From: a virus
Taxonomy: Duplodnaviria; Caudoviricetes
Virus record (IMG/VR): IMGVR_UViG_3300032665_000026
Span: 1 to 63,423 of that record
Direction: 5' to 3' (one strand)
DNA: 63,423 nucleotides
A model generated the notes under the pieces. The model worked only from the letters and a program-made list of their open reading frames with translations. It was not told where the DNA came from and did no database searches. The position numbers and the translations under genes are program-made. This document shows, piece after piece, positions 14,199-63,423 of this stretch. Position 1 is the stretch's first letter. Every line of letters starts with the position of its first letter.

Positions 14199-14263
14199 CT
14201 CCGAACGAAGCAAATACCGTAGATGCAGCAAGCTCCTGGGAATGAGATTAAACTTCCCAACAA

Positions 14264-28889: not shown

Positions 28890-29793
28890 CGGGAAATTTT
28901 ATATAGGGCAAGATACACACGATGATCCAAACTATTATGGGTCAGGGGTTGCCATCGTGAATGCTATAAAATTTTATGGAAAACTTAATTTTTTTAAAGA
29001 AGTACTCCAAGTTTGTAATACTATAGATGAACTCAATCAAGCAGAGATAGAATGGATTAGCAAACTAGATGCTAACAACAGGAAAATAGCTTACAATATA
29101 CAACCAGGTGGTAACCAAAAAGATTCGTATACAAATAACCCTAATAGAGAAGAGATTCTTAGAAAGTTAATAGAATCTAATGCAAGAGTTAATAATGATC
29201 CCGTGCTATCTAAAGCCAAACAAGATAAAACCACCGAAACAAAGATGAAGAATGGTACTCATCCTTCTTTGCCTGGAATGAAAAAAAAGTATAGTGAAGC
29301 TAATAAGGGTAGAGTATTTACAGAAGATACTTGTAAGAAAATTAGTGAAGCTAATAAAGGCAAAGCAAAGACTGAAGAACATAAAAAAAAGTTATCTTTA
29401 GCTAAAAAGGGGAAGCCTTCATCCAACAAAGGTAAGAAAATGAGTAAAGAAGGCATAGATAATATCAAATCGTCATGGACTGACAATCGTAGAGTTAAAC
29501 ATTCACAAATATTTTCTGGTAGGATTGTTTCGGAAGAAACTAAGAAAAAAATATCTGAATCTAAAATTGGGAAACCTGGCACACCGCATACGGAGGATTC
29601 TAAGAAGAAAATCTCTGAAGCCAATAAAGGGAAAATATTCTCAGAAGAATCACGAAAGAAAATGTCAGAAAGCAGTAGGGGACAAACTGCATGGAATAAA
29701 GGTATCCCATGCACAGAAGAAACAAAAGAAAAGATTCGTCAAAGTATTTTGAGTAAGAGAGAGAAAAATGAAGCTAAAATCAAAGACGATTGA
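28858..29793 (+). mobile_element. Free-standing GIY-YIG homing endonuclease with NUMOD3 repeats inside the fractured dnaE
   Basis: VYKTTNKINGKFYIG, YYGSG, ELNQAEIEWI, AYNI; repeats of (H/F)TEE(T/S)KKKISEANKG. Confidence 0.92.
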
Positions 29794-45642: not shown

Positions 45643-47217
45643 ATGCTTGATGATCAAATACAGAATATAAAACTGGCAATCATCGAGAAGCATACACCTG
45701 ACTTCTTGGAAGCTAGGAACAAGAAACACCAAGTAAATATGTGGTATGAAAAGCCTGGTGGTGAACCAGAACCTCGTACTGTTATACCATCTGAACTTGG
45801 TAAAGATCCAAAGAGTGGTAAAACATACCTCAGAGCTTTTTGCCTAAGCAGAAAAGACTGGCGCAGTTTTAGGTTAGACCGTGTGCATAGTATAATCTCT
45901 ACAGAGCCTAGAAGTATTGAGCCACCGGAAGATCCCACTCCATTCTCTCCTAAGGGCAATAAGTCTTCGGTTGATACAACGGTTGAAGAAAAGCCAAAGT
46001 ATGAACACCAAGGATATTTCCACGGCGTGTTAGAAATGCCCGAGGACATCGGTGATAATAAATCTCCATCTAAAAAGGATGGCATAACTAAAGAAGAAGC
46101 TGATGAAGCTAAAGGTGATGCTGGTTTAAATCTACCTTCATATTCTTTTGCCAGAGGTCTTGGTATCAGCCATTCTGATGTTATGGATGCTAACAGCTGG
46201 GACAAGGGGAAACGTCCAACTAAGCATATATTACATAACATCGGTGGAAAGAGGGGTCTCTTCGACTATGATCGTCATCTTGATGATTATGCCAATGCTA
46301 GGCGATCAGGTGCTAGCCACGAACAGATTAAAGAAGCTTACTCCAAAGGCGTAGACTGCCGCACTTATGTTGCTGGTAAGACTGCTGGTATGCCACATGG
46401 TGAGATATTAGATACCCATTCCCGTGGTTTAACCCCATGGGAAATAAGACATAGGGAACAAAAGAGAAAAAGCGTGGAAGATTATAAAGATACTTTCGAT
46501 GTTGGCAGTAGCGAATCAAAAGTTGAGCCAACTGATGAAGAATATAATCATGTTAAAAGTCTTGATGTAGATCCCCAGAGTTTTGATAAGGCAACGTATA
46601 AAAGGTTACGTAACATTGGTGCAACTCATAACAATTGCGTAGAAGCATTGACTGATGGAATCCCATTGGAAGATTATGAGACAGCGTACAAGAACAATGG
46701 TGACCATTCCAAGGCCAAACAAGAGGCTCTAGGATACCAAAAGAATTACGCCCAAACTATCAGCGACAACGAAAAGCTTTTAAACTCAACGGGTGGAAGG
46801 CACCTTCAGGGCGCGACCATATACAGTTCAAATGTTGAGCATGATGATGATGTAAGAGACCTTTTTGGTCACCATTTGGCATTAAAGAATAGACCCAAAC
46901 TTGGTGGTAATTACATAGACACACCATGGCGTAGGCGTGCTAACGAGTGGATGTTGAATGAGTGCTCTAAGTTAGACCCATCGTTGAAAGAACATGTCAG
47001 TAATACTGAAGTTAATGATGATAGCATGATATTACCGATAGAATCCTACTACGATAAGACTAACAAGCTTACGAATCACTATCGTCTAAAGCAAGCACAG
47101 AGTAGAACAATAGGTGAATTTGTTAAGAATAGAAGAGCAGTTAACTCACTGGTTAACCTAGGCAGCAGTCAATTCTTGCCTTCAGACTATCAGCACGATA
47201 AGTACGAGGAAGAATAA
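45643..47217 (+). CDS. WYL-domain protein with helical repeats
   Basis: MWYEKPGGEPEPRTVIP...YLRAFCLSRKDWRSFRLDRV is a WYL signature. Confidence 0.8.
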   Translation: MLDDQIQNIKLAIIEKHTPDFLEARNKKHQVNMWYEKPGGEPEPRTVIPSELGKDPKSGKTYLRAFCLSRKDWRSFRLDRVHSIISTEPRSIEPPEDPTPFSPKGNKSSVDTTVEEKPKYEHQGYFHGVLEMPEDIGDNKSPSKKDGITKEEADEAKGDAGLNLPSYSFARGLGISHSDVMDANSWDKGKRPTKHILHNIGGKRGLFDYDRHLDDYANARRSGASHEQIKEAYSKGVDCRTYVAGKTAGMPHGEILDTHSRGLTPWEIRHREQKRKSVEDYKDTFDVGSSESKVEPTDEEYNHVKSLDVDPQSFDKATYKRLRNIGATHNNCVEALTDGIPLEDYETAYKNNGDHSKAKQEALGYQKNYAQTISDNEKLLNSTGGRHLQGATIYSSNVEHDDDVRDLFGHHLALKNRPKLGGNYIDTPWRRRANEWMLNECSKLDPSLKEHVSNTEVNDDSMILPIESYYDKTNKLTNHYRLKQAQSRTIGEFVKNRRAVNSLVNLGSSQFLPSDYQHDKYEEE

Positions 47218-47948
47218 TGTTTAATGCCAAGTACGCCAATTCTGAAGAGTTCGACAATAGCATCTTCGAGAGGCCTGAAGGAGAACGTCTATATAGATCA
47301 GTCCCTAAGCTAATCGTTGGGTTCGATACGGAAACTACTGGTTTTAAGCCTGTTAAAGAAGAACCAGTATCTTATGGTATGGTTGTTTATAGGCATGGTA
47401 AAAAAACTGATGAACATGAGCACTTTCTAGTACATAATGGTTCTTTCCCAAACTCACCAGGTGCCACGAGCGTTCACCACTTTACCGATGAAGATTTAGA
47501 ATCTAGTTATAGCGGCAACATTATAAAAGATCACACCGGGAATATATTCAGCCCTGCTTTGCACCCACAGGTTGGTATTAATAGATTCGTTCAAAGATTA
47601 GCACACTACCAGAAACAAGGTGCTGTTTTCTTAGGTTCGAATCTCGGTTTCGACCATAATATGCTAGAGCACAATTATGCTAGATACAATCGCTTACCTA
47701 TTAGCTCTAGTGGGTTTGATCTTGCTGATGCTAGAAAAAGAACTATAAATACTGACGTGCATGAAGGTGTTATAGAACCTAGAGCAATTAAAGATAGAAA
47801 GCATCCAGGCTATAAATCGCATGGCCTTGAACAATTATGTTCAGATTACGGCGTCGATTTGGGTAGACACACTTCAATGGATGATGCCAACGCAGCAGTT
47901 AAAGTGTTCCTTAAACAAGTAGATCGAGTGAAGCGAGAAGGACGATGA
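47217..47948 (+). CDS. DEDDh 3'-5' exonuclease (DnaQ-like)
   Basis: FDTETTG, NLGFD, HTSMDDA. Confidence 0.9.
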   Translation: MFNAKYANSEEFDNSIFERPEGERLYRSVPKLIVGFDTETTGFKPVKEEPVSYGMVVYRHGKKTDEHEHFLVHNGSFPNSPGATSVHHFTDEDLESSYSGNIIKDHTGNIFSPALHPQVGINRFVQRLAHYQKQGAVFLGSNLGFDHNMLEHNYARYNRLPISSSGFDLADARKRTINTDVHEGVIEPRAIKDRKHPGYKSHGLEQLCSDYGVDLGRHTSMDDANAAVKVFLKQVDRVKREGR

Positions 47949-51366: not shown

Positions 51367-51389
51367 AAAAGTTTAGAGATATATTCTGA

Positions 51390-51416
51390 GGGTAGTTTTT
51401 GCACATACCCAGGTGC
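51390..51416 (-). ncRNA. H-type pseudoknot motif, copy 1
   Basis: GCAC-CTGGGTAT-GTGC-AAAAAC-TACCC. Confidence 0.75.
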
Positions 51417-51429
51417 GCCTTCACACGGA

Positions 51430-51624
51430 TTAATCTAATAGTGCATGAACATTGATGCACCAGTACTTATCACCAGCAAGAGCTTCCCACATGGCTAAGT
51501 TCTCGTGTTTCTTCCATTCAGCTCCAGGCACAGCAGCTTGGGCTTTATTTAAACTAGTATATAGTCCAGATATTTCCATGCTATTGTAGCTGGTATCATA
51601 GAGTAATGCATAAACTATTTTCAT
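51430..51624 (-). CDS. Hypothetical protein
   Basis: Last gene of the leftward unit. Confidence 0.55.
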   Translation of the reverse strand: MKIVYALLYDTSYNSMEISGLYTSLNKAQAAVPGAEWKKHENLAMWEALAGDKYWCINVHALLD

Positions 51625-51632
51625 GTTTATAT

Positions 51633-52328
51633 CTATCCTTCTATGACAGTCTGATTTAAGTTGGCGTTCTTGCCACTTAGTATACCAGCATCGTACCCGT
51701 TAATAGAAGTTAACTTATCTGATTGTCTGGATTTCTTTTTACCAACACTTTGAAAATAATCTTCGATAGCATGCTGCTTATCTCGGACTACTAGCTCCAC
51801 TGATGTACCAATAATTTCATTATCCTTAATGACTTTGGCCTTAGATTCTTTGATACGTTCACTAATAGTAACAGCATACCCTGCAAAGAAACTCTTTGTC
51901 CAAGCTTTAACTGGCAAAGTATCATTATAAATAGCCTTAGCTTTTTCTAACTTAATTTTCATCTCGCTAACCATATGGGGACAAAGGATCTCGTAAAGAG
52001 TTAAGCAAAAATCAATATCGCTTTGATAACCATAGATCATGCAGTAACCATCTCCTCGCAATACCTTGCAAAAGTTATGTTTAGCAATGGAATTAAGTAG
52101 CACACTCTTATCAATAAGATATGGTTTATTTACTTCAATCCTTGATGAAGTAATGCCACCAGAACCCACATGGTTATTAAGCTGAGCTTCCTCAATCTGG
52201 TATTGCGTAATGAGCTCCTGAGCAAGTGATTGAGCTGCTGCTACTTCTCCAGGGTGATTACTACTCTCCGCTAAGCGTAAGATTTTTTGTACCCTAGAAA
52301 TAATATCAGTAAGTTTGCTTACCATCAT
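51633..52328 (-). CDS. DUF2786-domain protein
   Basis: RVQKILRLAESSNHPGEVAAAQSLAQELITQY; SFFAGYA; GYDAG. Confidence 0.8.
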   Translation of the reverse strand: MMVSKLTDIISRVQKILRLAESSNHPGEVAAAQSLAQELITQYQIEEAQLNNHVGSGGITSSRIEVNKPYLIDKSVLLNSIAKHNFCKVLRGDGYCMIYGYQSDIDFCLTLYEILCPHMVSEMKIKLEKAKAIYNDTLPVKAWTKSFFAGYAVTISERIKESKAKVIKDNEIIGTSVELVVRDKQHAIEDYFQSVGKKKSRQSDKLTSINGYDAGILSGKNANLNQTVIEG

Positions 52329-52344
52329 TGTTCCTTCCTTGTTA

Positions 52345-52407
52345 TAGTCTAGCCATCATCGGCGGAGAGACGACTAATCCTCTCCGTACACCTCCCGGTG
52401 TTTCGGC
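52345..52407 (-). ncRNA. Type II hammerhead ribozyme, variant core
   Basis: GCC GAAA CACC-GGGA-GGTG TA CGGAGAG-loop-CTCTCCG CCGATGA T GGC; loop TAGTC pairs with 3' GACTA. Confidence 0.75.
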
Positions 52408-52411
52408 AATT

Positions 52412-52657
52412 CTAACTTAACAGCTTATTAATGCTTTTGATGTGGATATTCATGTTACTTATCTGCTCTTCCATAGCTTTCAAAGCACATTCGTACAGAG
52501 CTAAAGCTGCCTCATAGACTGATATGTTAAGGCTTCCCTTGTGATTGTTATAGATCTCAAAACCCTCTAACAATTCAGTGAAGCATTTACTTACTTCGTC
52601 TAATTGATTGACCATAGACTGTACTTGCGAAATTTTGTCTTCGCCAATTACTTGCAT
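52412..52657 (-). CDS. Hypothetical protein
   Basis: In-strand ORF. Confidence 0.55.
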   Translation of the reverse strand: MQVIGEDKISQVQSMVNQLDEVSKCFTELLEGFEIYNNHKGSLNISVYEAALALYECALKAMEEQISNMNIHIKSINKLLS

Positions 52658-52675
52658 TATATGCCTTACTCTTAT

Positions 52676-52969
52676 TTAATATTCTCCATCGTACTCGTAT
52701 GAGTCGATGTATTCATATGAAGCGTCAAATGTTACTTCTTCCTCCTTTCCTGTTTTAGGGCAGATATAATAGAATGTACCTTCTCCATCACCCCAGCTAC
52801 CGCTAGTTACCCAACCACCGCTATATATACTCCCACTGCGATTGTGTGAGTAACAAGTCATAGTGATGCCTTCGATACCAGTATGTGGTTCACCACAAGG
52901 GCATTCTACATCTCTAGTAGCTTCCTCTTCAATCGGTTCTGGTTCATCATCTGGTTCGTAATATCCCAT
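52676..52969 (-). CDS. Hypothetical acidic protein
   Basis: AAGGAG SD. Confidence 0.6.
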   Translation of the reverse strand: MGYYEPDDEPEPIEEEATRDVECPCGEPHTGIEGITMTCYSHNRSGSIYSGGWVTSGSWGDGEGTFYYICPKTGKEEEVTFDASYEYIDSYEYDGEY

Positions 52970-53021
52970 TGTTTCTCCTTTATTTTTATTGTTATATGTG
53001 AAATGCGAGGAGTTAGCTTCC

Positions 53022-53144
53022 TTATAGGAAGTCTACTAGATCTCCATCAAAGCCGTAGCTTTCAAGCTCACGATACATAGAAACAGGGCTAATTTTCCCA
53101 TTGTACATGTCGCTTACTAGTTCTTCTACCTGTTCATCATCCAT
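53022..53144 (-). CDS. 40-aa hypothetical protein (below track cutoff)
   Basis: AAGGA SD; MDDEQVEELVSDMYNGKISPVSMYRELESYGFDGDLVDFL. Confidence 0.55.
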   Translation of the reverse strand: MDDEQVEELVSDMYNGKISPVSMYRELESYGFDGDLVDFL

Positions 53145-53158
53145 GATGTATCCTTTAT

Positions 53159-53220
53159 TTAACCTATCTCATCAGTCCATAGGCGGTCAACCCTATGAAT
53201 ACGCCTCCCGGCGTTTCGAT
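53159..53220 (-). ncRNA. Type II hammerhead ribozyme, canonical core
   Basis: ATC GAAA CGCC-GGGA-GGCG TA TTCATAGG-GTTGACCG-CCTATGGA CTGATGA GAT; loop TTGACC pairs with 3' GGTTAA. Confidence 0.9.
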
Positions 53221-54871
53221 TCATTAATTAATACTCAGCACAGCCACAGTCATAGCCATTGGCAAAATTGCTGCAGCAGTAACTTACTTGCACTACTTGT
53301 CCAGAGGCATTGCGCATATAACCATCTGGTAATGTATCATCATATACATCTGAATCAAATTGGATTGTGTAAGTCATAGCTTACATCTCCTTAACTATTA
53401 GTTCAATTACTCTGTCGAGAGTATCCGATTGACCGCACTTATAGGGATCATCTCCCAACTCAAACGGATAAAACTTCATGATCTTTTCGATCAGCTCATT
53501 TTTATTCATGACACTTCTTTCCAGTTGTTGTTGTTTAATTGATCTAATGTGTCTTGGAACTCGTACAATATATCCCTCTCAGTCTCACCAGTTTCTGTGA
53601 AAGGATCAGCAAATACCCACTCGTTTAAGTTAGGTACAAAAACGTTCTTACCTTTATCAAAACGGGCAAGAGTTGTTTCCCAATCTATGTACCAACCTTT
53701 ACTCTCAGACCACGTTACCACGTAATGATATTCCATTATACTTATTCTCCTACTTCTGTATCTGTCAAGAAACCGTAGACACGTTTAAGATTATGGATAG
53801 CACGTTCTACGCTGCCATCTTTCTCTGAATCATTGATAGCCCATTTAGTTAGGCTAATTGCTGCCTCTAGTGTCTCTGGATCCATTACTCTTCCTCCTTG
53901 TTTCCGGTTACTGTGTAACCTTTCTCTACTACGAACCAATCGTCGTTCCAACCGTCAATCCAGTCGGGGCTTGATTCATCTGGCTCAGGGTGGTTGACGT
54001 ACAACCAACCCCACCCTTCCTCAAAACTATCAAACTCAATACCATCAAACAGGATGTTGTTCATCCAGTCGCGGATAAGGTACTTACTCATTGTTTCCTC
54101 CTAAGTATGTGTGCAACATGAACTACAGTCACCACAGTCACCACAACGACCATCACGACTAGCTAATTCATATTCTCTACCACAGGTGTCACACTCACCC
54201 ATCTCACTACATATGGGGCATAAACCATTGCAATGCTGACAATAGTTTTCATATACAGTAGGTCCATGATCACATGGTTCACATATCATAACTTACTCCT
54301 TACTTGATTGGGAACTCATTGAGGAATGTTTCAAAGACTGATGCCCGAGCTTTGTCCAGCTCATTGTTTAACTCATCGAGATCATCTTGATCTAAATCAG
54401 TGAAATCAATCTCTTCAAACCATTCTTCTAGGTTATCTTTAGTTACTTCATCCATTATACTCCCCAGCATTCATCACATGTACCATCATCACATTCGTCA
54501 CATGGGTGCTTTAATGGAGTATCTAACTCCATACCGCATGTTAAACAAATAGGATATTTCTTACTCACTATGCTTCCTCTCCTGTGTTTACGATAGCCCA
54601 ATCATCCCAATCGATGTTGTCCCACCAGAAGTCAGACTCTAATTGCTTATCTATCAGTTGCTGACCATCCAACCACTGATTTAGTTTCTCGGTTGCTTCT
54701 TCGGGGCTGCTTGCTACAACAGCAACGTCCATAGAAACTTTTGTGTAATACTCTTTCATTGCTTACTCCTCTAACATATTTATTACTTCATTGAGCTGTT
54801 CACATCGATCCAACAATTTAGCAATAACTTTCATTGCTTCTGCTAAGTTAGTTGGAGTCTCGATGCCATAA

Positions 54872-55141
54872 TCAAACAGTAACATCATACTTGCTACCTT
54901 TCTTTGGCATTCCTTTGACTGCCCTACGCTGTAGCTGTGTCATACCACCGAAGATACCAACGACCACGTTGTTATCAATGGCGTACTTTAGGCATTCCTG
55001 TTGCACTATGCAATTGTCACAGTATACCTTAGCTGCATCCATCTTTATTTTTATTTCTCTTGGTAACATTCTACCTTCAAAGAAAAACACATCAGTGTCT
55101 ACACCGATGCAATTGGCATCATCACGCCAGTTCTGATTCAT
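54872..55141 (-). CDS. whiB: Second WhiB-family transcription factor
   Basis: WRDDANC...FF...CDNCIVQQECLKYA...GIFGGMT...RR. Confidence 0.92.
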   Translation of the reverse strand: MNQNWRDDANCIGVDTDVFFFEGRMLPREIKIKMDAAKVYCDNCIVQQECLKYAIDNNVVVGIFGGMTQLQRRAVKGMPKKGSKYDVTV

Positions 55142-55310
55142 TTTATCTCCTCTACCTCATCTACTTCCATTTCATGACCATCGATGAGGAATGCATGGCC
55201 GTTTGCCCACACATCTTCTGCCCATGCTTCAGGAGTATAGCCCTTAGGCATGTCTTCTTCGGTGAATTCATAATAGTATTCAACCGTAGCAATGGCTGTA
55301 TACTTTTTCA

Positions 55311-55700
55311 TCATACCCCCTTAAATAAACTGATGAATTCATCAAACGTCACTGGATCAGTTGCAGTCCACTTGATAGTTTCTTGGTAGTGTTCTATGCT
55401 GATGTCTGAGTAATCAACTTCTTTAATCACAACAGTCCTATCTACATGGTTAACTACAACAATACGCCATACGTCATCATGCTCTGATAGACCAATGCCA
55501 TAGCCAGTTTCACCCATTACTTCACCGAAAATCATCTCTGAGAAGATGATACGGTTGAGATACTCATCATCACCCCAACGACCTTTCCCACGCCCTAGAG
55601 CATTAGCTACAGTCATAGGAAGATAATCAGCACCCCAATGGGTATACAAAAACACTGAACCCTCAGCACTAACCAATTCTACCTGTCCACGGTCTCCCAT
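55311..55700 (-). CDS. Hypothetical phage protein
   Basis: MGDRGQV...FLYTHWG...RWGDDEYLNRII. Confidence 0.65.
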   Translation of the reverse strand: MGDRGQVELVSAEGSVFLYTHWGADYLPMTVANALGRGKGRWGDDEYLNRIIFSEMIFGEVMGETGYGIGLSEHDDVWRIVVVNHVDRTVVIKEVDYSDISIEHYQETIKWTATDPVTFDEFISLFKGV

Positions 55701-55737
55701 GTTATTCTCCTTGCTTGTTTAACCTCATTATGAGGAG

Positions 55738-55788
55738 CACCCTAAGCTAGATTCGAACTAGCATACATCACCACCAATTGGCTAGGGA
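55738..55788 (-). ncRNA. Mini tRNA-like element 1 (acceptor stem plus T arm)
   Basis: TCCCTAG-CCAATTGGTGGTGATGTAT-GCTAG-TTCGAAT-CTAGC-TTAGGGT-G. Confidence 0.7.
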
Positions 55789-55796
55789 TACCTTAA

Positions 55797-56345
55797 CTAC
55801 CAGCTACTTACGTAATAAACGTCGTGACCTTTATTAATTGCTTCTCGTGCTTCCAAGATAAGTTCCAGGTCTTCATTGTAGTAATATGAATCTGAATTCT
55901 CACCAAAGAAAAATCCTGAAGTTGAAGGTAATGTACCAAGGCGTACATGCATTTCTAACTGGTCCAAGTCACCAACATTTAACCTCAACGGTTGGTTGTT
56001 AAAGATTCGAGACTTGTGTAAATTAGCAGCCATCGAAGCATACTGCTCTTGTCGAATGATAGCTTTCATAGCTTCTTCAGATGTTACCATCTCAAGCATC
56101 TCTGGGGTAACTTCTGACTTATCGACTACACCAACCATGTGAGCAACAACTTCAGTAAGAAACCTTTTATCTCCTTCAAAGCCTTGCGCGTTTGCTTTGC
56201 TATTGAATAGATCTTCCATCCATCCTTCAAGGTTGGGGTGCTTACGACGATAAGCTAACTCAAATGTATCAGCATCTTCTGAGTACATAAAGTCAGTGTT
56301 ATCTTCATGACGTTCAACCATGAATACGTACTGGTCTAAACCCAT
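55797..56345 (-). CDS. Hypothetical phage protein
   Basis: MGLDQY...RKHPNLEGWM...GFFFG...VYYVSSW. Confidence 0.7.
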   Translation of the reverse strand: MGLDQYVFMVERHEDNTDFMYSEDADTFELAYRRKHPNLEGWMEDLFNSKANAQGFEGDKRFLTEVVAHMVGVVDKSEVTPEMLEMVTSEEAMKAIIRQEQYASMAANLHKSRIFNNQPLRLNVGDLDQLEMHVRLGTLPSTSGFFFGENSDSYYYNEDLELILEAREAINKGHDVYYVSSW

Positions 56346-56386
56346 AATCTTACTCCTTGTTTAACTTACTATTCCCTACTTGGGAG

Positions 56387-56434
56387 CGTCCTAAGATGGG
56401 ATCGAACCATCATACATCATCACCAGATTAGGAC
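56387..56434 (-). ncRNA. Mini tRNA-like element 2 (acceptor stem plus T arm)
   Basis: GTCCTAA-TCTGGTGATGATGTAT-GATGG-TTCGATC-CCATC-TTAGGAC-G. Confidence 0.75.
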
Positions 56435-56441
56435 CACCTTA

Positions 56442-56849
56442 CTACTCTACATCAGGGAACAACGACCTAAGGTAACTACCATCTAAGATAGAAGACGTTG
56501 CTGCTTTTGCTGCTTCAATGATTTCTGCAGCTTTTTCTAGGCTATCAATCGCTAGAGTGTTGCCTTCATCATCAATGCCACCAGTGATAATGATATCACC
56601 GACAATCATATCAGTCATGCCATACTCGTGAATCCATAGAGCAGTCCCGAATACGTTCATGCGTGGGTTCTCAACGAGCTTTCCTTCGTCATCGATCCAC
56701 AGATCAATACCGAGTGAATCGATACTTACGCATTGGATCAAGCCACCACCAGTGGCTGCTTTCAGTTGCTTGTATGAATTTGCCTCATCAAAGTCAACGA
56801 TTGCAATCTCATTGGTAGCTGCATCAGAAGTGATTGCATACTTTCCCAT
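56442..56849 (-). CDS. DUF3846-like protein
   Basis: GGLIQCV...LWIDDEGKL...N...IVGDIIITG. Confidence 0.75.
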   Translation of the reverse strand: MGKYAITSDAATNEIAIVDFDEANSYKQLKAATGGGLIQCVSIDSLGIDLWIDDEGKLVENPRMNVFGTALWIHEYGMTDMIVGDIIITGGIDDEGNTLAIDSLEKAAEIIEAAKAATSSILDGSYLRSLFPDVE

Positions 56850-56881
56850 TATATTCCCCTTACTTGTTTGGTTTATTTGAG

Positions 56882-56910
56882 TGGGCAGTTTAATGACATA
56901 CCCAGGTCAT
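56882..56910 (-). ncRNA. H-type pseudoknot motif, copy 2
   Basis: ATGAC-CTGGGTAT-GTCAT-TAAAC-TGCCCA. Confidence 0.8.
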
Positions 56911-56920
56911 ACTAACTTAA

Positions 56921-57634
56921 CTACTTAGGGAAAACAATTTCAATTTGCTTACCATTAATAGTAATGAACTGCGGTGCAGCAGGTACATCTGGTTCTACTG
57001 GTGCTACTGATACAGGTTCTAACACTGGATTAATTGCTTCAATAACGTCTCCGATACTATCAAACATCATACTAAAGCCTGGAATATCTGCTTTGTCTCC
57101 ACCGAAATCCCATGCGCTTGTGTCAATGGTGAATGAGGTATCAATCATTGGTTCGGGTTCTACTTCTGCTACAACAGTAGTTGGTGCATCTTCAGTAACA
57201 CTGGAGGTAGTTTCAACCGTTGTAGGAATAGTAGAATATACCATACCTAGATCTGACTTCTCTTTCCAAACACCATCGATTGAGATGCAAGGATTCAAGA
57301 CAATGCCAGTCTTACCAACCTCGTACGATAGACCAAGCATACGGTAGAGAAAGTACTTACGCGCAATATCTCGATTAGTCTCAGTCTGTGCCATTTGTAG
57401 CATCGTAGCGATATTTGCCTTAGCATCTTGGTGAGTTGCATAGAACATACGCCCAATGATAGTACGTGCTCGTCCAGTTTCTTCATCGTTCTTAGAACAA
57501 CGAATATCTACTCGGGAGAAACTTGTTGGTGTCTCCTTAGTAACAGTGAACGCTAGGTCAACTATGTCGCGAGTACGACTAGAATTCCAGCACTTACCAT
57601 CTGGTTTTGGTACCCAGATAAGTTCGTTAGTCAT
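56921..57634 (-). CDS. Hypothetical protein
   Basis: 237 aa in-strand ORF. Confidence 0.6.
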   Translation of the reverse strand: MTNELIWVPKPDGKCWNSSRTRDIVDLAFTVTKETPTSFSRVDIRCSKNDEETGRARTIIGRMFYATHQDAKANIATMLQMAQTETNRDIARKYFLYRMLGLSYEVGKTGIVLNPCISIDGVWKEKSDLGMVYSTIPTTVETTSSVTEDAPTTVVAEVEPEPMIDTSFTIDTSAWDFGGDKADIPGFSMMFDSIGDVIEAINPVLEPVSVAPVEPDVPAAPQFITINGKQIEIVFPK

Positions 57635-57662
57635 CTTACTAGTTCCTTCCTTACTTGTTTAT

Positions 57663-57722
57663 TTGACCTCTTCATTCAGCCGGTGGTGGTCAATCCACCG
57701 AGAGTCCTCCCGGACTTTCTGT
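57663..57722 (-). ncRNA. Type II hammerhead-like ribozyme, divergent core
   Basis: GAAA GTCC-GGGA-GGAC TC TCGGTGG-ATTGACCA-CCACCGG CTGAATGA; TTGACC/GGTCAA pseudoknot; stem II weak. Confidence 0.65.
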
Positions 57723-57732
57723 TCTTATTACT

Positions 57733-57915
57733 TTAATCTTTAACTCTTGGTGTGCAAAGGCCATCCATAATGAGTCCTTCTGCCATGCGACCGTAATGAC
57801 CTTGAAGACTCCAAGCCATTCCAGTGTCAATCAAGTACTGAAACAGTTCAATTGTTTCCTCTCCATTCAAACTGCCCTGTTCGTAGTCAATAATATTAGA
57901 TAGTGTATCGTACAT
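57733..57915 (-). CDS. Small hypothetical phage protein
   Basis: IIDYEQG...LFQYLIDTGMAWSLQGHYGR. Confidence 0.7.
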   Translation of the reverse strand: MYDTLSNIIDYEQGSLNGEETIELFQYLIDTGMAWSLQGHYGRMAEGLIMDGLCTPRVKD

Positions 57916-57939
57916 AATTCTCCTTTTTATTTTATTGTT

Positions 57940-58362
57940 TTACAACGGGTAACCAGAAATACTGCGGATATAACTACTAGGGCCAACAGGCTCTGGTGCT
58001 TTAGCGCTTTCATAACAGCTTAATTGCTCAATGAACCAAGCTTCTGCTTCAACTGATCTTTTACCATACAGCAATCTTGCACTGAATAATAGAGCATCAA
58101 CAAAGTTTTTAGCAAGATAAGAGCTTTGAAACTCTCGTACAAATAATACTTTATTTGCTACTTTCTTACCATCATCCCGCTTACGAACGATAAGCCTTGC
58201 ATTCTTATTAACAATGCCGTATTGAGAACCAGCTTCTAACGTAAAAGATAGATCTACATTATGATTGTATAGCCACCATTTTCTTTCAGGATGTGTTTTG
58301 GCAGTCCAAACAACATCATCATCATTCTTCCTTAGACGCCAATGCAATTCACGACTAATCAT
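57940..58362 (-). CDS. Hypothetical protein
   Basis: In-strand ORF with ATGA overlap. Confidence 0.55.
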   Translation of the reverse strand: MISRELHWRLRKNDDDVVWTAKTHPERKWWLYNHNVDLSFTLEAGSQYGIVNKNARLIVRKRDDGKKVANKVLFVREFQSSYLAKNFVDALLFSARLLYGKRSVEAEAWFIEQLSCYESAKAPEPVGPSSYIRSISGYPL

Positions 58363-58580
58363 GATTCTCCTTGCTTAACAAACTTATTAACAAGTTTGCC
58401 CATGTCTTCTGAGCTTGGAACCTCTTCCGAACTAACATCGAATACAGCTGCCTTTTGACTCTTGGCAAACTCTTCGACCATTAGCTTGAAATAAGCACCG
58501 AATGATTCCATTTGATCAGGATCATCGAACTCAACTTCGATAGTAAGGTTAGGACCTACTTGAGTACCTTTAATCTGCAT
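58359..58580 (-). CDS. Hypothetical protein
   Basis: AAACAAGGAG leader. Confidence 0.6.
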   Translation of the reverse strand: MQIKGTQVGPNLTIEVEFDDPDQMESFGAYFKLMVEEFAKSQKAAVFDVSSEEVPSSEDMGKLVNKFVKQGES

Positions 58581-58608
58581 AGCTATTCTCCTTGTTTAGT
58601 TATTTATG

Positions 58609-58636
58609 TGGGCACTTTATCGTCATACCCAGGACG
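58609..58636 (-). ncRNA. H-type pseudoknot motif, copy 3
   Basis: CGTC-CTGGGTAT-GACG-ATAAAG-TGCCCA. Confidence 0.8.
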
Positions 58637-58747
58637 CCATACACTCGTGTAACACACAGGTAGTAGGCTAACCTACATGAGCTGCTCCTCATGCTGAGTC
58701 TGTGTTGCATCACATCGCGTCGCGGTCCATGCGATACACAAGAAAGG

Positions 58748-58774
58748 GGGCAGTTTTTCTGTCATACCCAGGAC
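58748..58774 (-). ncRNA. H-type pseudoknot motif, copy 4
   Basis: GTC-CTGGGTAT-GAC-AGAAAAAC-TGCCC. Confidence 0.75.
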
Positions 58775-59667
58775 GCAACGATTACTCTACCTTCCAACCG
58801 ATAAGCTGGCTTCTTACGCTCCGCCGCGTGTGTTCTTTCCGGCATCCACTACTTCCGATATGAGCTTCCCCTCATACTGAGTGTGTTATCAAACTAATCG
58901 TGTCTCTGTCCCTGTCATCAACTTCATGAGCTTGTCCTAACAACCATAGCTTAATTACAACAGGGCCTATGTACACAACGAAGCATACATAGGCTTGAGC
59001 TTTATTCCAGACGCTGTGCTCAAAGCGCCCCTAGTTCCTTTGTATCATACCAACTAGGAAGTATTATTGAGCTAACGGATCAAACCGGCTACATTGAGGC
59101 AGTAGCTTCCCTTCTATTAAGTAGGCTTCTGATTACCTCCATACGCTTCCCCGTATGGTGAGGATGGCAGTTGCAGATGCCAGCTGGGACGGTTTATACT
59201 CACCGTGAGTAGCACCCATACCAACCATGACAGCTGGTATGGGTTCATCCGTTAAGAGTGGATGGGTTGGCTAGGTTTAAGGAGAGCCTACGTTCCTGTG
59301 CAAACTTCCCCCTGCACTGAGAGGTTTGTTTGGTAGTACCCGTCTACCAGCTTTCAGTTCTTTAACTGAATAAGCCATGAAAGCAACCGCCTCTCCTACT
59401 CACGGCATAGCCCAGGCCAGGGTTTTAATGACAACCCTCCACATCATGATGCTTTTAACGTGATCCAAACACGTCTATTGAGCTAACCCCACACACACAC
59501 GTTGTTTGTGAAATGCGTGGAGTTAGCTCCTTAGAGCTGATAGCTTCCTCAAGAAACCCAGAGGAGCTATGGAGATGCCACAACAAGAAGGAAAAGCACT
59601 CTCCATAACCCCTCTCAATTGCTTGAGCGAAGTATATGTCGAGCTTATCATCCTTGCCGACGTTATG

Positions 59668-59988
59668 CTATGATCCCAGAAGAACCTTAGCTTTTGCTAG
59701 GGCAGTTTCGAATCCAGCAATACTATCGAGAGCATAGACGCCACTGAGCTTGAGAGCGATCTCAATTTCCTCAACGACATCGACAAGTCCTTTAGCTACC
59801 GTTTGGTAGATGATGACTTTGTTCTCGAGAGCAGCGATCTGTTCTTTGGACAGATCAACCAGTTTGTCGACATTGATGAGAAGATCGACAAGTATCAGGG
59901 AATATTCCCTTAGCTTATCGATGTCCTCAGCAACGTTGATCTTGGATTGAATCTCTTCAACCCGTGCCTGGATACCAGTAGTGTTCAT
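59668..59988 (-). CDS. Hypothetical coiled-coil protein (start 59988)
   Basis: AAGGAG SD before MNTTGIQARVEE. Confidence 0.6.
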   Translation of the reverse strand: MNTTGIQARVEEIQSKINVAEDIDKLREYSLILVDLLINVDKLVDLSKEQIAALENKVIIYQTVAKGLVDVVEEIEIALKLSGVYALDSIAGFETALAKAKVLLGS

Positions 59989-59998
59989 CGCTTTCTCC

Positions 59999-60358
59999 TT
60001 ATGCCCAGTGGTCCTGGTGACCACAATTCTTGTTGGTACCATCGCACTCAGGGTGATGAGCACTGTGCCATTGGAATGGCGCACCCAAAACATTGACAGC
60101 TTCTTTCTGCAAGATGTCATAGAGTTCATTGAGGTGGTCAATCGTTAGCTTAAGCCCAAGAGGGAACATGCGACTAGCATTTTCCAACTCATTGACGCTG
60201 CTATCCTCATTCATCAAGATCTGAGCAATGATTGAGAAAGGTGAAATGATCTCACCCATCTTACCACCCCAGTCCTTGATGCCCTCAAGGAATTCAACGT
60301 GAGCAATACGTGCCTCAGCTGCTTCATCAAGTTTCAAGTCGAGATTGAACTCTTCCAT
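59999..60358 (-). CDS. Hypothetical protein (start 60358)
   Basis: AAACAAGGAG leader before MEEFNLDL. Confidence 0.6.
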   Translation of the reverse strand: MEEFNLDLKLDEAAEARIAHVEFLEGIKDWGGKMGEIISPFSIIAQILMNEDSSVNELENASRMFPLGLKLTIDHLNELYDILQKEAVNVLGAPFQWHSAHHPECDGTNKNCGHQDHWA

Positions 60359-60490
60359 TGTTGCTCCTTGTTTATTTGTTACAGTACCAATCTGGTACAC
60401 TGTGTATCATAAGACACACATGGCACTCAGGTGTAACCATATAGACCACACCTGAGTTGTTGAGTTATAAGTTACTCAATGAACTTGGGG

Positions 60491-61984
60491 CTAAAGCAAA
60501 CCAAGCAAAGCGTCACGGATAGGACCAGCAGGCTTATTGATAAGCTTGCCAGCCTTGAACCCCTTGACTGCTTCTTCAACACTCGGAATCATAATGATCC
60601 GGTGCTTCTTGACCAGTTGAGCACACTGCTTAGTTAATTCATTGTTGCGTCCATCAGTCTTGCTGGTGACGATACCATCACATACCCAGATAAGATCCTC
60701 ACCGGGATGACGTTGATTGATAGCCCACGTAAGAGCAGGACCATCAACACCGTTACCCATCCCACCTACAGATGGGATCTCAGCTACACGCCAACCACGC
60801 CTAGCAAAGATCCAAGCATTGGGCTGATCATCACCACAGTGACTGTACGCCATGATGACAGCAGCTGGTGCTGCCTCAACGATGGACTCGATGTCAGATT
60901 GAGTCAGGCTCATAGAACCTGAGATATCAATCAACACCACGCCACCACGTACCCTCTTCTTGTGAGTGAAGATTCGTCGCTCAGGGTCAGTGTAAAGTCG
61001 GCTGATGTTGCCGATGCTACGACCGAACTGAGCAGGCTTACGCTTGCGCTTCATGTACCCTTCTACCTCAACAGATAGCACGAGAGAATCATCGATGTTA
61101 AGCTTGGCAAACATGCCACGCTCATCGGTGGGGAACTCGTAATCATCAGGTAGCTCATCTTTGAGTGGAGTTCTAAAGGGAGATAACTTACCCTCTTCAC
61201 TCGGCTCAGTGGATTCACCATACTCTGAAGCACGCTTATCCTCTTCCTCGTCACGCTCACGCTGGATAGTTTCAGGAGCTTTCATGCCTGTTGAAGCATA
61301 CTGTGAGATCTCAGCAGCAACACGGATTGTGTTGTTGAAGCCACGAGGGCCAGTAACACCACCACCAAAATCGTATGGGGAAGTGTCACCGAGATCCATG
61401 GGATCACCCAACAGAACCTTATCGAGCCTCTTGCTGAGCTTACGCAACCGCTCAGACCATTCAGGGTTCACAGACCTAACGCCACTCGCGAACGAGTCAA
61501 ACGATTTGGTACCGTGATGCTCCACAGTGAACTTGAGTGCCTCATCCCAGTGCCTAGACGACTTGCCTGTAGCAAGCATCACTCCACGCTTCTTCTCATT
61601 GCCAAGTATCTCGTTAGAATCAACGCCCTTGAGCTCTAAGAATGGCTTGGCGACAGCATTGACTCGGGCTTGTTCTGCAACACGAAGCATAGCATCAGTA
61701 ATACCATGCGACTTGTAAGTAATACCACCCTGCTTGTAAATGTTGTCATCCATTGGAGAGATACGAGCTTCAATTAGCTTGCGCACCTTCAACTGCTGTG
61801 ACTGACTGTCCCCCGTGAGAGGGACAGCCAATACACTCGCAGCGAAGTCTACACCAGCGCCGTACTCACCCACTGTTGTAACAACTTCCCAGTTGTTACC
61901 AGTAGGCGCATCATCACGGTATGAAACGATCGCACCAACTAGTGGCTTGACCCCTTCTTCCTCGATAGCGTAGTCTTCACTCAT
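60491..61984 (-). CDS. VWA-domain protein (CobT/MoxR partner)
   Basis: VLIDISGSMS MIDAS motif, GNGVDGPAL, WVCDG. Confidence 0.85.
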   Translation of the reverse strand: MSEDYAIEEEGVKPLVGAIVSYRDDAPTGNNWEVVTTVGEYGAGVDFAASVLAVPLTGDSQSQQLKVRKLIEARISPMDDNIYKQGGITYKSHGITDAMLRVAEQARVNAVAKPFLELKGVDSNEILGNEKKRGVMLATGKSSRHWDEALKFTVEHHGTKSFDSFASGVRSVNPEWSERLRKLSKRLDKVLLGDPMDLGDTSPYDFGGGVTGPRGFNNTIRVAAEISQYASTGMKAPETIQRERDEEEDKRASEYGESTEPSEEGKLSPFRTPLKDELPDDYEFPTDERGMFAKLNIDDSLVLSVEVEGYMKRKRKPAQFGRSIGNISRLYTDPERRIFTHKKRVRGGVVLIDISGSMSLTQSDIESIVEAAPAAVIMAYSHCGDDQPNAWIFARRGWRVAEIPSVGGMGNGVDGPALTWAINQRHPGEDLIWVCDGIVTSKTDGRNNELTKQCAQLVKKHRIIMIPSVEEAVKGFKAGKLINKPAGPIRDALLGLL

Positions 61985-62730
61985 TACAGTGAAGCCGTCG
62001 TGCTCAAGGTACCGAGACGAATGACATCGATGATAGAGTCAGCAAGCTTACCGAAGACAAGCTTTGCAGCACGCTCCGTGGAGAACGCTGGGTTCTGACG
62101 CAGAAGCTGGAACTCCTTCCAAGCACGCAATGAAGCACGCTCGCCGTTCTGACCAGCAACAATAGCTGCAGCAAGCATGCGCAACTCTGGTGGCAATGCA
62201 GCGACCAACGCAGCCGGGTGGGCAGCGTCAATCTTGATTGCAACCGGGAAGCGGTCACGCAATGGAGCAGCGATCATGTTGGGATCCGTGAAGTTCGTGG
62301 TCATGATAGCCGAGAAGTTCTCATTAGGACGAATAGTCTCGCCCGTGTAAGGATTCTTCCAGACCGATGACTCCGCACTGTCAAGGAACGCCATCAGCGT
62401 CGACTCAACGTCACCGGAAGCACGGTTGATCTCGTCAATAACTGCACGAGCACCGGACTTCCAAGCACGAGCCAATGCACCCTCGACGAAGCCGAAACCA
62501 CCGCTAGGCGTAGGCAGCATTGCACCTACGATGTCGCCTGTGGTCATGTCCTCGGAGCAGATGAGTCGCTCAGACCCAGCGTCACCGACGCCGAGAGTGA
62601 GAGCCGAGTAGGTCTTGCCGGTCCCAGGAGGGCCGTACAGGATGACCTTCTTGACACCTGCAGCGATTACGTCCTCCAAGTCGATGAAGCACTGGGGAAC
62701 GGGAATGCCTTCGTATGAAGTTTCGCTCAT
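61984..62730 (-). CDS. MoxR/CbbQ-like AAA+ ATPase
   Basis: GPPGTGKT, IDEINRA, MTTN, PLRDRF. Confidence 0.9.
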   Translation of the reverse strand: MSETSYEGIPVPQCFIDLEDVIAAGVKKVILYGPPGTGKTYSALTLGVGDAGSERLICSEDMTTGDIVGAMLPTPSGGFGFVEGALARAWKSGARAVIDEINRASGDVESTLMAFLDSAESSVWKNPYTGETIRPNENFSAIMTTNFTDPNMIAAPLRDRFPVAIKIDAAHPAALVAALPPELRMLAAAIVAGQNGERASLRAWKEFQLLRQNPAFSTERAAKLVFGKLADSIIDVIRLGTLSTTASL

Positions 62731-62808
62731 AATAGTTTTCCTTCTTGTTTGTTTGTTGTTTTACGGTGCTTGTTATCACCGGACACATACCGGTTATGGT
62801 ATGTATCG

Positions 62809-62878
62809 CACTGCAGATGGGAATCGAACCCACAATCTTCTAGCTGAACTAGACGCTCTACCATTGAGCCACTGCAGT
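62809..62878 (-). tRNA. Atypical tRNA with shortened anticodon arm centred on UCA
   Basis: ACTGCAG TG GCTC-AATGGTA-GAGC G TCTAG-TTCAG-CTAGA AGATT GTGGG-TTCGATT-CCCAT CTGCAGT G. Confidence 0.75.
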
Positions 62879-62891
62879 AACCACTTACCTA

Positions 62892-63341
62892 CTAGTAACG
62901 CTTGTTGTCATAAACAAGGCGAGAGGTATAGGTTTCTGTCGCATGAGTGAAAGTGATGACCGATGCTTTAAACTGCGCAAGACTAGCACCATTACCAAGC
63001 ACCAACAACGTTGTTGAAGCAAGGCTTGACAGAGCAACAGCCAATACATTGGTGTCACTGTTCAGTGTGTAGTCAGGAGAGTTAGAGTGACGGTTGAGCA
63101 CAATAGCATCGTTAGCCAGTGCATGAGCAGCGGCTCGTGATGCAGAAAGATTGTTGTTGTTAAGCCCAATCTCCAGTGCTGAATAGTCCTTAAGCATCTT
63201 TGACACGATCGGTTGTGTCGCATGCTTCCAAGCATTGTACTTACTCAGTGGGCTAGCACTGACAGCAACTGCAGGGAGCATGAGTGTTGTAACCACAACC
63301 ACACTCGCAACCTTCTTAGTTAGACTAATTAGATTCATCAT
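62892..63341 (-). CDS. Secreted/exported helical protein (start 63341)
   Basis: AAACAAGGAG leader; signal peptide KKVASVVVVTTLMLPAVAVSA. Confidence 0.65.
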   Translation of the reverse strand: MMNLISLTKKVASVVVVTTLMLPAVAVSASPLSKYNAWKHATQPIVSKMLKDYSALEIGLNNNNLSASRAAAHALANDAIVLNRHSNSPDYTLNSDTNVLAVALSSLASTTLLVLGNGASLAQFKASVITFTHATETYTSRLVYDNKRY

Positions 63342-63376
63342 TTCTCCTTGTTTGTTTGGAATAACAGGTGTTACTC

Positions 63377-63418
63377 CGATGGGTACCCAAGCCTGTCGTC
63401 CGACTTGGATACCCATCG
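63377..63418 (-). other. Long hairpin upstream of the secreted-protein gene
   Basis: CGATGGGTATCCAAG/CTTGGGTACCCATCG, 15 bp with one U-G pair on the - strand. Confidence 0.6.
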
Positions 63419-63423
63419 CAGCA

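Follow-up and report, generated by a model that had tools for sequence, protein, structure and literature searches.

The window analyzed in this study is a whole IMG/VR virus record (IMGVR_UViG_3300032665_000026) of 63,423 bases, with a CheckV completeness estimate of 43%. Its rightward block carries tail, replication, and packaging genes. The leftward block, which runs from approximately 51.4 kb to the window end, consists of small genes whose functions are mostly unassigned. We describe here the RNA elements in the spacers of this leftward operon, namely hammerheads, tRNA-like minihelices (mini-tRNAs), and a small pseudoknot, and consider their possible role as processing signals at cistron boundaries. 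Since the window possesses two WhiB genes (10814-11182 and 54872-55141), the host is probably actinobacterial.

Between 51.4 and 63.4 kb, the operon has ten internal minus-strand spacers of 50 nucleotides (nt) or more: 52329-52411, 52970-53021, 53145-53227, 55701-55796, 56346-56441, 56850-56920, 57635-57732, 58581-59667, 60401-60490, and 62731-62891. All ten contain an RNA element on the sense strand, and for every one a counterpart exists in one or more relatives. This agrees with the original prediction for this DNA, which had claimed that most of the larger spacers of the 12-kb leftward unit hold such elements. The classes that it listed (three hammerheads, four pseudoknots, two mini-tRNAs, one atypical tRNA, hairpin clusters, and a large gap) are all present on the minus strand in their predicted places. 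It had also put several of the element starts within about 10 nt of the upstream stop codon; the measured distances are 2, 5, 8, 7, 8, and 10 nt. The next start codon lies 9-32 nt beyond the element end.

A megablast search of cultured phages gave no match to the 12-kb leftward region, and a search for related loci with the 497-amino acid (aa) protein of the window gave no relative. Relatives were reached through motif scans and a genome search. These are the uncultured records G001 (132 kb), G002, G003 (116 kb), and G004 (58 kb). As G002 is almost identical to G001 across the operon region, it was left out of separate counts. The leftward operons of G001, G003, and G004 are syntenic with that of the window, and the coding DNA identity is 64-84%. 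These IMG/VR relatives carry the same elements at their gene boundaries, where the elements are conserved and covary.

Hammerheads and tRNA-like elements between the cistrons

The hammerheads and tRNA-like elements of the operon are given below, with scores for two covariance models, R1 (hammerhead) and R2 (mini-tRNA).

52340-52409, minus strand: HH1, type II hammerhead; R1 71.7 bits, Rfam Hammerhead_II 13.2 bits
53154-53222, minus strand: HH2, type II hammerhead; R1 81.8 bits, RF02276 29.3 bits
57658-57724, minus strand: HH3, type II hammerhead; R1 64.4 bits, no Rfam hammerhead match at E<=10
56369-56438, minus strand: mini-tRNA 1; R2 88 bits, Rfam tRNA 11.8 bits, none by ARAGORN
55720-55792, minus strand: mini-tRNA 2; R2 70.9 bits, syntenic copies in G001, G003, and G004
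62808-62878, minus strand: atypical full-length tRNA-like element; Rfam tRNA 61.8 bits, ARAGORN anticodon UCA

Strong matches to R1 and R2 are confined to the homologous operons of the four related phage records. Pairing in the two alignments was compared with 500 column shuffles and with slid controls, and it lies above all of them. R1 was trained on nine paralogues and orthologues. Three copies were found with it in the window, four in G001, four in G003, and one in G004, all in homologous operons, and none in an unrelated contig. Three of the G001 copies had not been used for training; their position is upstream of the window end.

In the 12 distinct hammerheads of the four lineages, 86.6% of the cells are paired, as compared with 66.6% in the shuffles (0/500 reach the observed value) and 34-45% in the slid controls. 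Stem I is 95.6% paired, with seven of its eight pairs changed on both sides, and stem III is 100% paired. Stem II is weak (62.9%). The pseudoknot between loop I and the 3′ tail, a helix that is absent from the R1 model, is 74% paired, and three of its six pairs are changed on both sides. In the predicted fold, three stems meet in a junction; stems I and III are capped, stem II is open, and the loop-I/3′-tail pseudoknot is present, as in type II hammerheads.

HH1 starts 2 nt past the upstream stop codon, and its Shine-Dalgarno (SD) sequence comes after the pseudoknot tail. The core reads CCGAUGA, with C at position 4, and an extra U follows A9. Both features are kept in the HH1 orthologues of the window and G001, and the G003 orthologue has C4 without the extra U. 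HH2 possesses a canonical core (CUGAUGA, GAAA, and GUA), and its loop I (UUGACC) pairs with the 3′ tail (GGUUAA). The core of HH3 is CUGAAUGA, with an extra A after A6, and its stem II is weak; the G004 orthologue has the canonical CUGAUGA. Cleavage is predicted between 52387 and 52386 in HH1, between 53200 and 53199 in HH2, and between 57702 and 57701 in HH3. The conserved type II core (CUGANGA, GAAA with A15.1-U16.1, and an NUH triplet) is complete in HH2, whereas HH1 and HH3 deviate from it. With regard to the three predicted hammerheads, the type II fold holds for all of them, and a canonical core for HH2 only.

None of the three was recovered in Rfam scans of the whole window at the gathering threshold, where tRNAs were the only matches, and of the 12 kb in E-value mode. 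In a scan of a 111-nt segment, Hammerhead_II (RF02276) matched HH2 at 53158-53221; the score is 29.3 bits, as compared with a gathering score of 37, and the E-value is 1.2e-4. Since the 12-kb scan had missed this element, blanks from the large Rfam scans are weak evidence.

Triple hammerhead arrays that flank single prophage genes and cleave polycistronic RNA in vitro and in vivo have been described, and processing into gene-length mRNAs has been proposed for phage hammerhead clusters (Perreault et al. 2011, PMC3088659). The window hammerheads are real, but they are of this known kind. As in the parts of that report considered here, the loop-I/3′-tail pseudoknot is present and several copies flank single genes in one unit. 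Its natural core variants also recur: U3-A8 (G003, UUGAUAA), U13a (two G003 copies, GAUAA), A6a (HH3 of the window), U15.1-A16.1 (two G001 copies), and a stem II of 1-3 bp (several copies). Unlike the hammerheads in those parts, the window hammerheads share slots with non-ribozyme tRNA-like elements, and the HH1 lineage combines C4 with an extra U after A9.

The hammerheads of G001 extend further. Three more (L178, L181, and L183) lie at 110235-112982 on its plus strand, upstream of the region homologous to the window end. The window operon is probably cut off at position 63423, and further elements beyond this position are possible.

The two mini-tRNAs share one order in their 96-nt spacers: acceptor stem, linker of 10-20 nt, T arm, discriminator without CCA, small hairpin, and SD. 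In mini-tRNA 1, an acceptor stem of 7 bp (5′ end at 56434) is followed by a 19-nt linker with UGG, a 5-bp T stem with a UUCGAUC loop, and the discriminator G (56384), and CCA is absent. A CUCCC-AAGUA-GGGA hairpin (56370-56382) and then the SD follow. In mini-tRNA 2, the acceptor stem has 6 bp and one mismatch (5′ end at 55788). After the linker, the T arm is GCUAG-UUCGAAU-CUAGC, followed by the discriminator G (55738) and a small hairpin. Across the copies, the hairpin after the minihelix is either CUCCC-AAGUA-GGGA or a GNRA-capped stem.

R2 recognizes 12 copies in the window, G001, G003, and G004, whereas the true tRNAs of the window score at most 18.8 bits. A 15-mer scan for the hairpin after the minihelix gave 25 loci. 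Four of them, in G001, G002, and G004, were left out, and 21 were analyzed with R2. Three match, in three further contigs with one mini-tRNA each, and 18 are chance occurrences. In the 12 copies, 91.8% of the cells are paired, as compared with 74.9% in the shuffles (0/500). Pairing reaches 94% in the acceptor stem and 100% in the T arm, and 11 of the 16 pairs are changed on both sides. The T-loop G-UUC-R-A is invariant in nine aligned copies. UGG occurs in the linker of 11 of the 12 copies, and the remaining copy has only GG.

No four-arm cloverleaf was found in the mini-tRNAs: ARAGORN reports nothing, and RF00005 gives a truncated match of 11.8 bits. What they possess is an acceptor stem on a T stem with a GUUCRANNC T loop and a discriminator base. 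The predicted mini-tRNAs are real minihelices of acceptor stem and T arm, with strong covariation in 12 copies. Decaying tRNA pseudogenes were ruled out because of the compensating changes and the invariant T loop. In most copies, a leader UAAGGU (or GGU) stands directly 5′ of the acceptor stem (55793-55796 and 56439-56441 in the window).

The atypical tRNA was also found as predicted. In the Rfam alignment, its anticodon stem closes to a 5-nt loop, and ARAGORN calls the anticodon UCA. The acceptor is ACUGCAG, with A1-U72 and G73. A role as a general UGA suppressor is unlikely, because TGA is the stop codon of 30 of the 93 predicted genes.

When orthologous spacers are compared, two slots hold different elements in different lineages.

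Upstream of the orthologues of the 237-aa gene (56921-57634): hammerhead in the window, G003, and G004; mini-tRNA in G001
Upstream of the AAA-ATPase gene: tRNA-like element (UCA) in the window; tRNA-Met by ARAGORN in G001; mini-tRNA in G003; capped tRNA-like element in G004

At the AAA-ATPase slot, the G004 element lacks the D arm, and a GGGA tetraloop caps its anticodon arm. The G003 mini-tRNA shares its acceptor (ACUGCAG) and T arm (GUGGG) with the tRNA-like element of the window. The acceptor/T-arm half is the part that survives in every lineage at this slot, and it is this half that RNase P and RNase Z recognize. What is kept would so be the half read by these two enzymes. At the other slot, two cleavage-type signals are exchanged at an orthologous position, which argues that RNA cutting itself is the selected function. 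These slot exchanges are the key new evidence. Cutting of the polycistronic RNA by several chemistries, as originally proposed, is supported in part: the conserved boundary elements and the slot exchange speak for it, and for the hammerheads there is published precedent.

A widespread pseudoknot family

The predicted four pseudoknots with an identical loop (CUGGGUAU) were confirmed in the leftward unit, and a fifth lies outside it.

51389-51416, minus strand: PK1, past the last gene of the leftward block, with the convergent terminase gene facing it; fits the 17-base pattern
56882-56910, minus strand: PK2; orthologous copies before the DUF3846 gene in G001 and G004
58609-58636, minus strand: PK3, 3′ end of the 1.1-kb region (58581-59667), 28 nt before the next start; copies in G003 and G004
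58747-58774, minus strand: PK4, within the 1.1-kb region, closing a repeated module
14233-14259, plus strand: fifth pseudoknot, between tRNA-Lys and tRNA-Pro

In all four copies of the unit, a covarying P1 of 3-5 bp is followed in order by C, UGGGUA, U, P1′, an A-rich L3 with AAAC at its end, and U-R-CCC-A. In PK2, P1 is AUGAC/GUCAU, L1 is C, S2 is UGGGUA/UGCCCA, L2 is U, and L3 is UAAAC. PK2 starts 10 nt past the upstream stop codon, and the next start codon lies 32 nt beyond its end. In the copy at 14233-14259, S2 is a compensated variant (UGGGAA/UUCCCA), and 4 nt separate the end of this copy from the 5′ end of tRNA-Pro. Further compensated S2 variants were observed at L018 and L110.

Counts of viral pseudoknot loci were taken among the matches listed and are lower bounds. 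The 17-base pattern occurs at 120 or more viral loci, and 116 of those listed have at least two further P1 pairs. The family as a whole has at least 240 viral loci. At the free S2 positions of 104 distinct contexts, R is G in 70, A in 32, and U in 2, in agreement with a 6-bp S2, and the base after CCC is A in 72 of the 104. P1 pairs 2, 3, and 4 are formed in 102, 101, and 71 of 103 loci, with all four Watson-Crick types. In total, 274 of 309 P1 cells are paired; 1000 shuffles gave 145 on average and 166 at most. The compensated S2 pattern GAG...CUC was found at a minimum of 121 viral loci; among those listed, 119 have P1 and 116 have AAAC. In contrast, the mismatch control GAG...CCC gave 19 loci, and of the 13 distinct stretches read by regular expression, two have P1 and none has AAAC. 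In these sequences, covariation shows both stems.

The pseudoknot matched no Rfam 15 family in a 216-nt scan over two copies (E<=10) and in the 12-kb scan. The models not matched include preQ1-I/II/III, SAM-II/V, pistol, and HDV-like (hepatitis delta virus) ribozymes, among others. The sole Rfam overlap is a chance-level RAGATH-13 hit (20.5 bits, E 4.9). As candidates, a minimal HDV-like (theta) ribozyme and a pistol ribozyme were rejected by eye, as the required extra helices could not be drawn from the variable flanks. A blastn search with one pseudoknot locus, L061, gave no match among cultured phages.

A scan of GTDB genome contigs (596 Gb) gave 122 loci. P1 is present in 54, and the other 68 look like expected chance matches. 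The clear loci are on contigs assigned to Saccharibacteria, Planctomycetes, Bacillota, Actinomycetota, Dehalococcoidia, and others. On one 2150-bp contig of a Saccharibacteria-labelled metagenome-assembled genome, three pseudoknots (L274-L276) lie approximately 700-850 nt apart. This shows the same multi-copy, one-per-gene use outside the phage group of the window.

The strand of the pseudoknot matches that of the flanking open reading frames (ORFs), with 80 vs 20 upstream and 77 vs 24 downstream. Of 109 loci, 54 have a P1 that starts 4-8 nt past the upstream stop codon, and 78 have it within 17 nt. A downstream start was located in only 54 of 136 loci, at distances of 17-209 nt. Among the upstream gene fragments tested (65/69 after near-duplicates were dropped), 12 of 65 match Hsp20 and a few are head-related. 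In the window, PK1 closes the operon, and a pseudoknot closes the non-coding region in the window, G003, and G004. We read the pseudoknot as a portable element that closes a unit, whether this is an ORF, the last gene of the window operon, a non-coding module, or a tRNA spacer.

A tRNA is present in the flanks of 5 of 104 pseudoknot loci, and the idea of a tRNA-array element was rejected on this count. By ARAGORN, the tRNA lies 3-4 nt beyond the pseudoknot end in L019, L054, and L083, and 18 nt beyond it in L025. A Hammerhead_II match was found in one of 50 other pseudoknot-bearing viral contigs, and this one is a relative; the Rfam model is insensitive, as it recovered one of the four G003 copies. 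A ribozyme-associated motif was rejected on this ground. The pseudoknot is not specific to the predicted toolkit of structured RNAs, and we do not count it as part of a ribozyme toolkit.

Among known pseudoknots, it resembles the acceptor arm of the turnip yellow mosaic virus (TYMV) type, preQ1-I, and recoding pseudoknots in its H-type fold, where L1 is 1 nt, L3 is rich in A, and the stems are coaxial with approximately 10 bp. The post-stop spacing is like that of recoding stimulators. It differs from these known pseudoknots in several respects: it has no single-stranded RCCA tail, it is intergenic, it also occurs in tRNA arrays and inside non-coding RNA, and its S2 (UGGGUA or UGAGUA) hardly varies among hundreds of unrelated phage contigs.

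Proposed processing of the operon transcript and alternative explanations

From the folds, their conservation and covariation, the placement, and the slot exchanges, we infer cleavage, the acting enzymes, and a stabilizing effect. We consider it rather probable that the elements are cistron-boundary processing and end-protection signals, which combine self-cleavage with host tRNA-processing enzymes. The leftward operon would be transcribed as a long polycistronic RNA, and its cistron boundaries would be marked by three interchangeable signal classes. Scans for sigma-70 promoters and terminators gave only shuffle-level results, which are compatible with long read-through transcripts without being evidence for them.

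The type II hammerheads would cleave themselves between stem III and stem I. The upstream piece would then end in a hairpin with a 2′,3′-cyclic phosphate, and the downstream piece would start with a 5′-OH hairpin just before its ribosome-binding site. In the minihelices, the short UGG linker would replace the D loop. Host RNase P would cut on the 5′ side, and host RNase Z would cut after the discriminator because no CCA is encoded. The hairpin that follows would cap the 5′ end of the downstream mRNA. Since neither RtcB nor a CCA-adding enzyme is encoded in the four records, all of which are incomplete, enzymatic processing would use host enzymes.

The pseudoknot, placed directly after a stop codon, a small RNA, or a tRNA unit, would provide a stable 3′ boundary. 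Most likely it is a 3′-end cap that blocks 3′-to-5′ exonucleases, as S2 buries the 3′ strand and L3 is rich in A. Alternatively, it may be an RNase P-type substrate; the U-G step at the L1/S2 junction, like an RNase P site, and the coaxial helix of approximately 10 bp fit this role (PMC12710915, PMC11143913). Among pseudoknotted RNase P substrates is the TYMV-type tRNA-like acceptor arm. A biotin-aptamer pseudoknot is reported to be cleaved by RNase P in loop 1 (PMC12710915).

Polycistronic transcripts of mitochondria are punctuated by tRNAs. As in that system, where RNase P and RNase Z separate the mRNAs, tRNA-shaped structures lie between the cistrons of the window. Unlike there, most of the marks are minihelices without D and anticodon arms, they are in the operon of a double-stranded DNA phage, a dedicated hairpin follows them, and they alternate with ribozymes. 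The tRNA-like domain of tmRNA, minihelix substrates, and mascRNA-type signals are also processed by RNase P and RNase Z. The mini-tRNAs share with such RNAs an acceptor stem stacked on a canonical T arm and a short substitute for the D loop. They differ in lacking the G3-U70 alanine pair, an mRNA-like domain, and an encoded CCA, and in that several copies with different acceptor sequences occur per genome. The order of cleavage element, small hairpin, and ribosome-binding site, with a defined 5′ end for each cistron, recalls RiboJ and tRNA-spaced guide-RNA arrays. The window operon differs from these synthetic insulators in being natural and in mixing three element types. RNase P is known to cleave non-tRNA RNAs, including operon mRNAs, T4 gene 32 mRNA, P1/P7 C4 RNA, and phi80 M3 RNA (PMC11143913). 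In the literature searched, we found no description of the pseudoknot or of phage mini-tRNA punctuation, and the candidate catalogue of PMC10690425, which was available in part, may hold them unnamed.

Several observations weigh against this reading. None of HH1-HH3 reaches the gathering score of 37 for RF02276 (13.2 bits, 29.3 bits, and no match). The cores of HH1 and HH3 are non-consensus, and they may cleave slowly or not at all. A6a hammerheads such as HH3 are reported to have low activity (PMC3088659), and sections 6 and 8 of that article gave no mention of the C4 variant, alone or with an extra U after A9. The alignments used for covariation were fitted to their own models, and their sequences are related paralogues and orthologues. 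For the mini-tRNAs, RNase P or RNase Z cleavage is suggested by their shape, and a simple substrate role does not explain the conserved UAAGGU leader and the conserved linker. The pseudoknot may serve a function unrelated to cutting, because it is near a tRNA in so few loci (5/104). Elsewhere it is not associated with hammerheads, as Hammerhead_II was matched on one of 50 contigs that carry it, a relative. Moreover, a block to 3′ exonucleases in a tRNA array would hinder the trimming of the upstream tRNA unless RNase Z acts.

A broader form of the proposal is more tentative, and we regard it as possible but somewhat doubtful. Phages may own interchangeable and portable end-of-unit RNA modules. 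The pseudoknot would be a universal boundary read by machinery that all hosts share (RNase P or 3′ exonucleases), tRNA genes within operons would have been whittled down to minihelix cut marks, and hammerheads would be an enzyme-free third solution. If true, this would explain why phages carry hammerheads. Their role in bacteria and phages has been open since 2011, and the exchange with a minihelix at one slot would offer a concrete answer, namely that the cut is selected. Going from tRNA through odd tRNA and capped tRNA-like element to mini-tRNA, the series suggests how, in a bacterial virus, an RNA that serves decoding can shrink to a signal for processing, in parallel with mitochondrial tRNA punctuation. 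The pseudoknot is a small, very widespread, and sharply defined RNA family with a distinctive post-stop placement that is missing from Rfam 15. It is an accessible target for biochemistry and a candidate natural insulator part.

Three other explanations were weighed. The element classes may be functionally unrelated, with the released small RNAs as the point and mRNA cutting as incidental; we think this unlikely. The mini-tRNAs and the odd tRNA would then be effectors or decoys, for instance baits for tRNA-targeting defences or for tRNA-modifying or CCA-adding enzymes. Conservation of the UGGUGAUGAAGUAU-like linker and of the UAAGGU leader, beyond the apparent need of a bare RNase P/Z substrate, fits such a role, and the 1.1-kb region resembles an array of small structured modules and not an untranslated region. 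However, a hammerhead, which yields no tRNA-like product, occupies the mini-tRNA slot in three of the four lineages. The acceptor sequences differ among the copies, so that no single identity is mimicked, and every copy stands exactly between two cistrons and is followed by a hairpin and an SD.

Slightly less probable still is a pseudoknot that regulates translation or transcription in cis instead of protecting an end. It could be an operator that binds a ligand or protein and controls the downstream gene, a signal on the terminating ribosome, or a put-like RNA for a termination-resistant polymerase. The spacing of 4-8 nt past the stop codon is that of frameshift or readthrough stimulators. 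An SD and start codon lie 18-40 nt downstream in 25 of 104 distinct viral loci (50 of which have an SD and start at any distance found), and intrinsic terminators or promoters follow some copies. The nearly invariant loop and S2 across contigs of many phyla would suggest a universal partner. On the other hand, copies without an upstream ORF exist, within the non-coding region and between two tRNAs, and PK1 has no downstream gene. L3 often holds UAA and the frame of the spacing varies, so that readthrough products are unlikely. No Rfam riboswitch model matches, and an L2 of 1 nt would hardly accommodate a ligand pocket like that of preQ1-I.

It is very improbable that the intergenic elements act mainly as DNA, as recombination linkers for the exchange of gene cassettes among related phages with the RNA folds secondary. 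In favour of this are the reordered modules of the 1.1-kb region (90-96% identical between the window and G001, as compared with 64-84% for the flanking genes) and the post-minihelix hairpin CUCCCAAGUAGGGAA, which is identical in distant relatives. Against it are the compensating stem substitutions, which are not expected from selection on DNA identity, and the strand-specific RNA signatures (hammerhead core, T loop, and co-orientation with the genes).

The 1.1-kb region and other features of the window

The remaining RNA features of the leftward unit are as follows.

58581-59667, minus strand: non-coding modular structured region, 1087 nt; z = -5.75
60401-60490, minus strand: cluster of three hairpins, past the 497-aa gene
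Approximately 62762-62805, minus strand: hairpin cluster
52991-53018 and 59501-59528, minus strand: repeated motif GCUAACUCCNCGCAUUUCACA, two copies in the window

The 1.1-kb region contains no ORF longer than 43 aa, and its fold z-score, which covers 980 nt, has 20 shuffles as reference. Among its features are a long hairpin (59552-59621), a 17-bp hairpin on the GCUAACUCC motif, hairpins with GGGAAG loops, and two pseudoknots. The blocks shared with G001 in a different order are 44-134 nt in length and 91-96% identical. With G003 and G004, the region shares only its first long hairpin and the block of the terminal pseudoknot. Comparison with Rfam, including GOLLD, ROOL, HEARO, and raiA, gave only generic hairpin (miRNA-model) matches at 59548-59627. 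A structured RNA of about 1 kb had been predicted here. The region is indeed non-coding and structured, but its appearance is that of small modules in a row (hairpins with GGGAAG loops and units that end in a pseudoknot) and not that of one large RNA.

The long hairpin at 59552-59621 (minus strand) carries a pyrimidine loop of 17 nt, which G003 and G004 retain (94-96% identity). A 14-nt exact complement of this loop is present at the ribosome-binding site of the AAA-ATPase gene (approximately 62738-62751, minus strand), about 3 kb upstream in the same operon. By eye, the complement shrinks to approximately 9-10 nt in the relatives. The loop may be an antisense or kissing regulator.

The predicted hairpin clusters are present at both positions. 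Reading of the sequences, without a formal count, indicates that the hairpins at 60401-60490 are kept with compensating changes in G001 and G003. The GCUAACUCCNCGCAUUUCACA motif has exactly two copies in the window and two at syntenic places in G001. The copy at 59501-59528 forms the 5′ arm of the 17-bp hairpin, and the other stands just before an SD. As only two copies per genome were found, the GCUAACUCC motif was rejected as a general phage promoter.

Three proteins of the phage had been proposed to take part in the RNA processing. Their genes exist: a Phage_Hfq-like gene at 20374-20760 (27.4 bits against a cut-off of 24.2), a WYL gene at 45643-47217, and an RNase_T/DEDDh gene at 47217-47948. 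The genes are in the rightward replication block, and no link between them and the RNAs emerged.

In the same direction, the DNA polymerase III alpha gene (27486-32065, plus strand) consists of two ORFs (27486-28889 and 29768-32065), and a NUMOD3 homing-endonuclease-like ORF (28858-29793) lies between them. At the end of the first part, a weak intein-splicing match was detected, and the split may be due to an intein or intron insertion.

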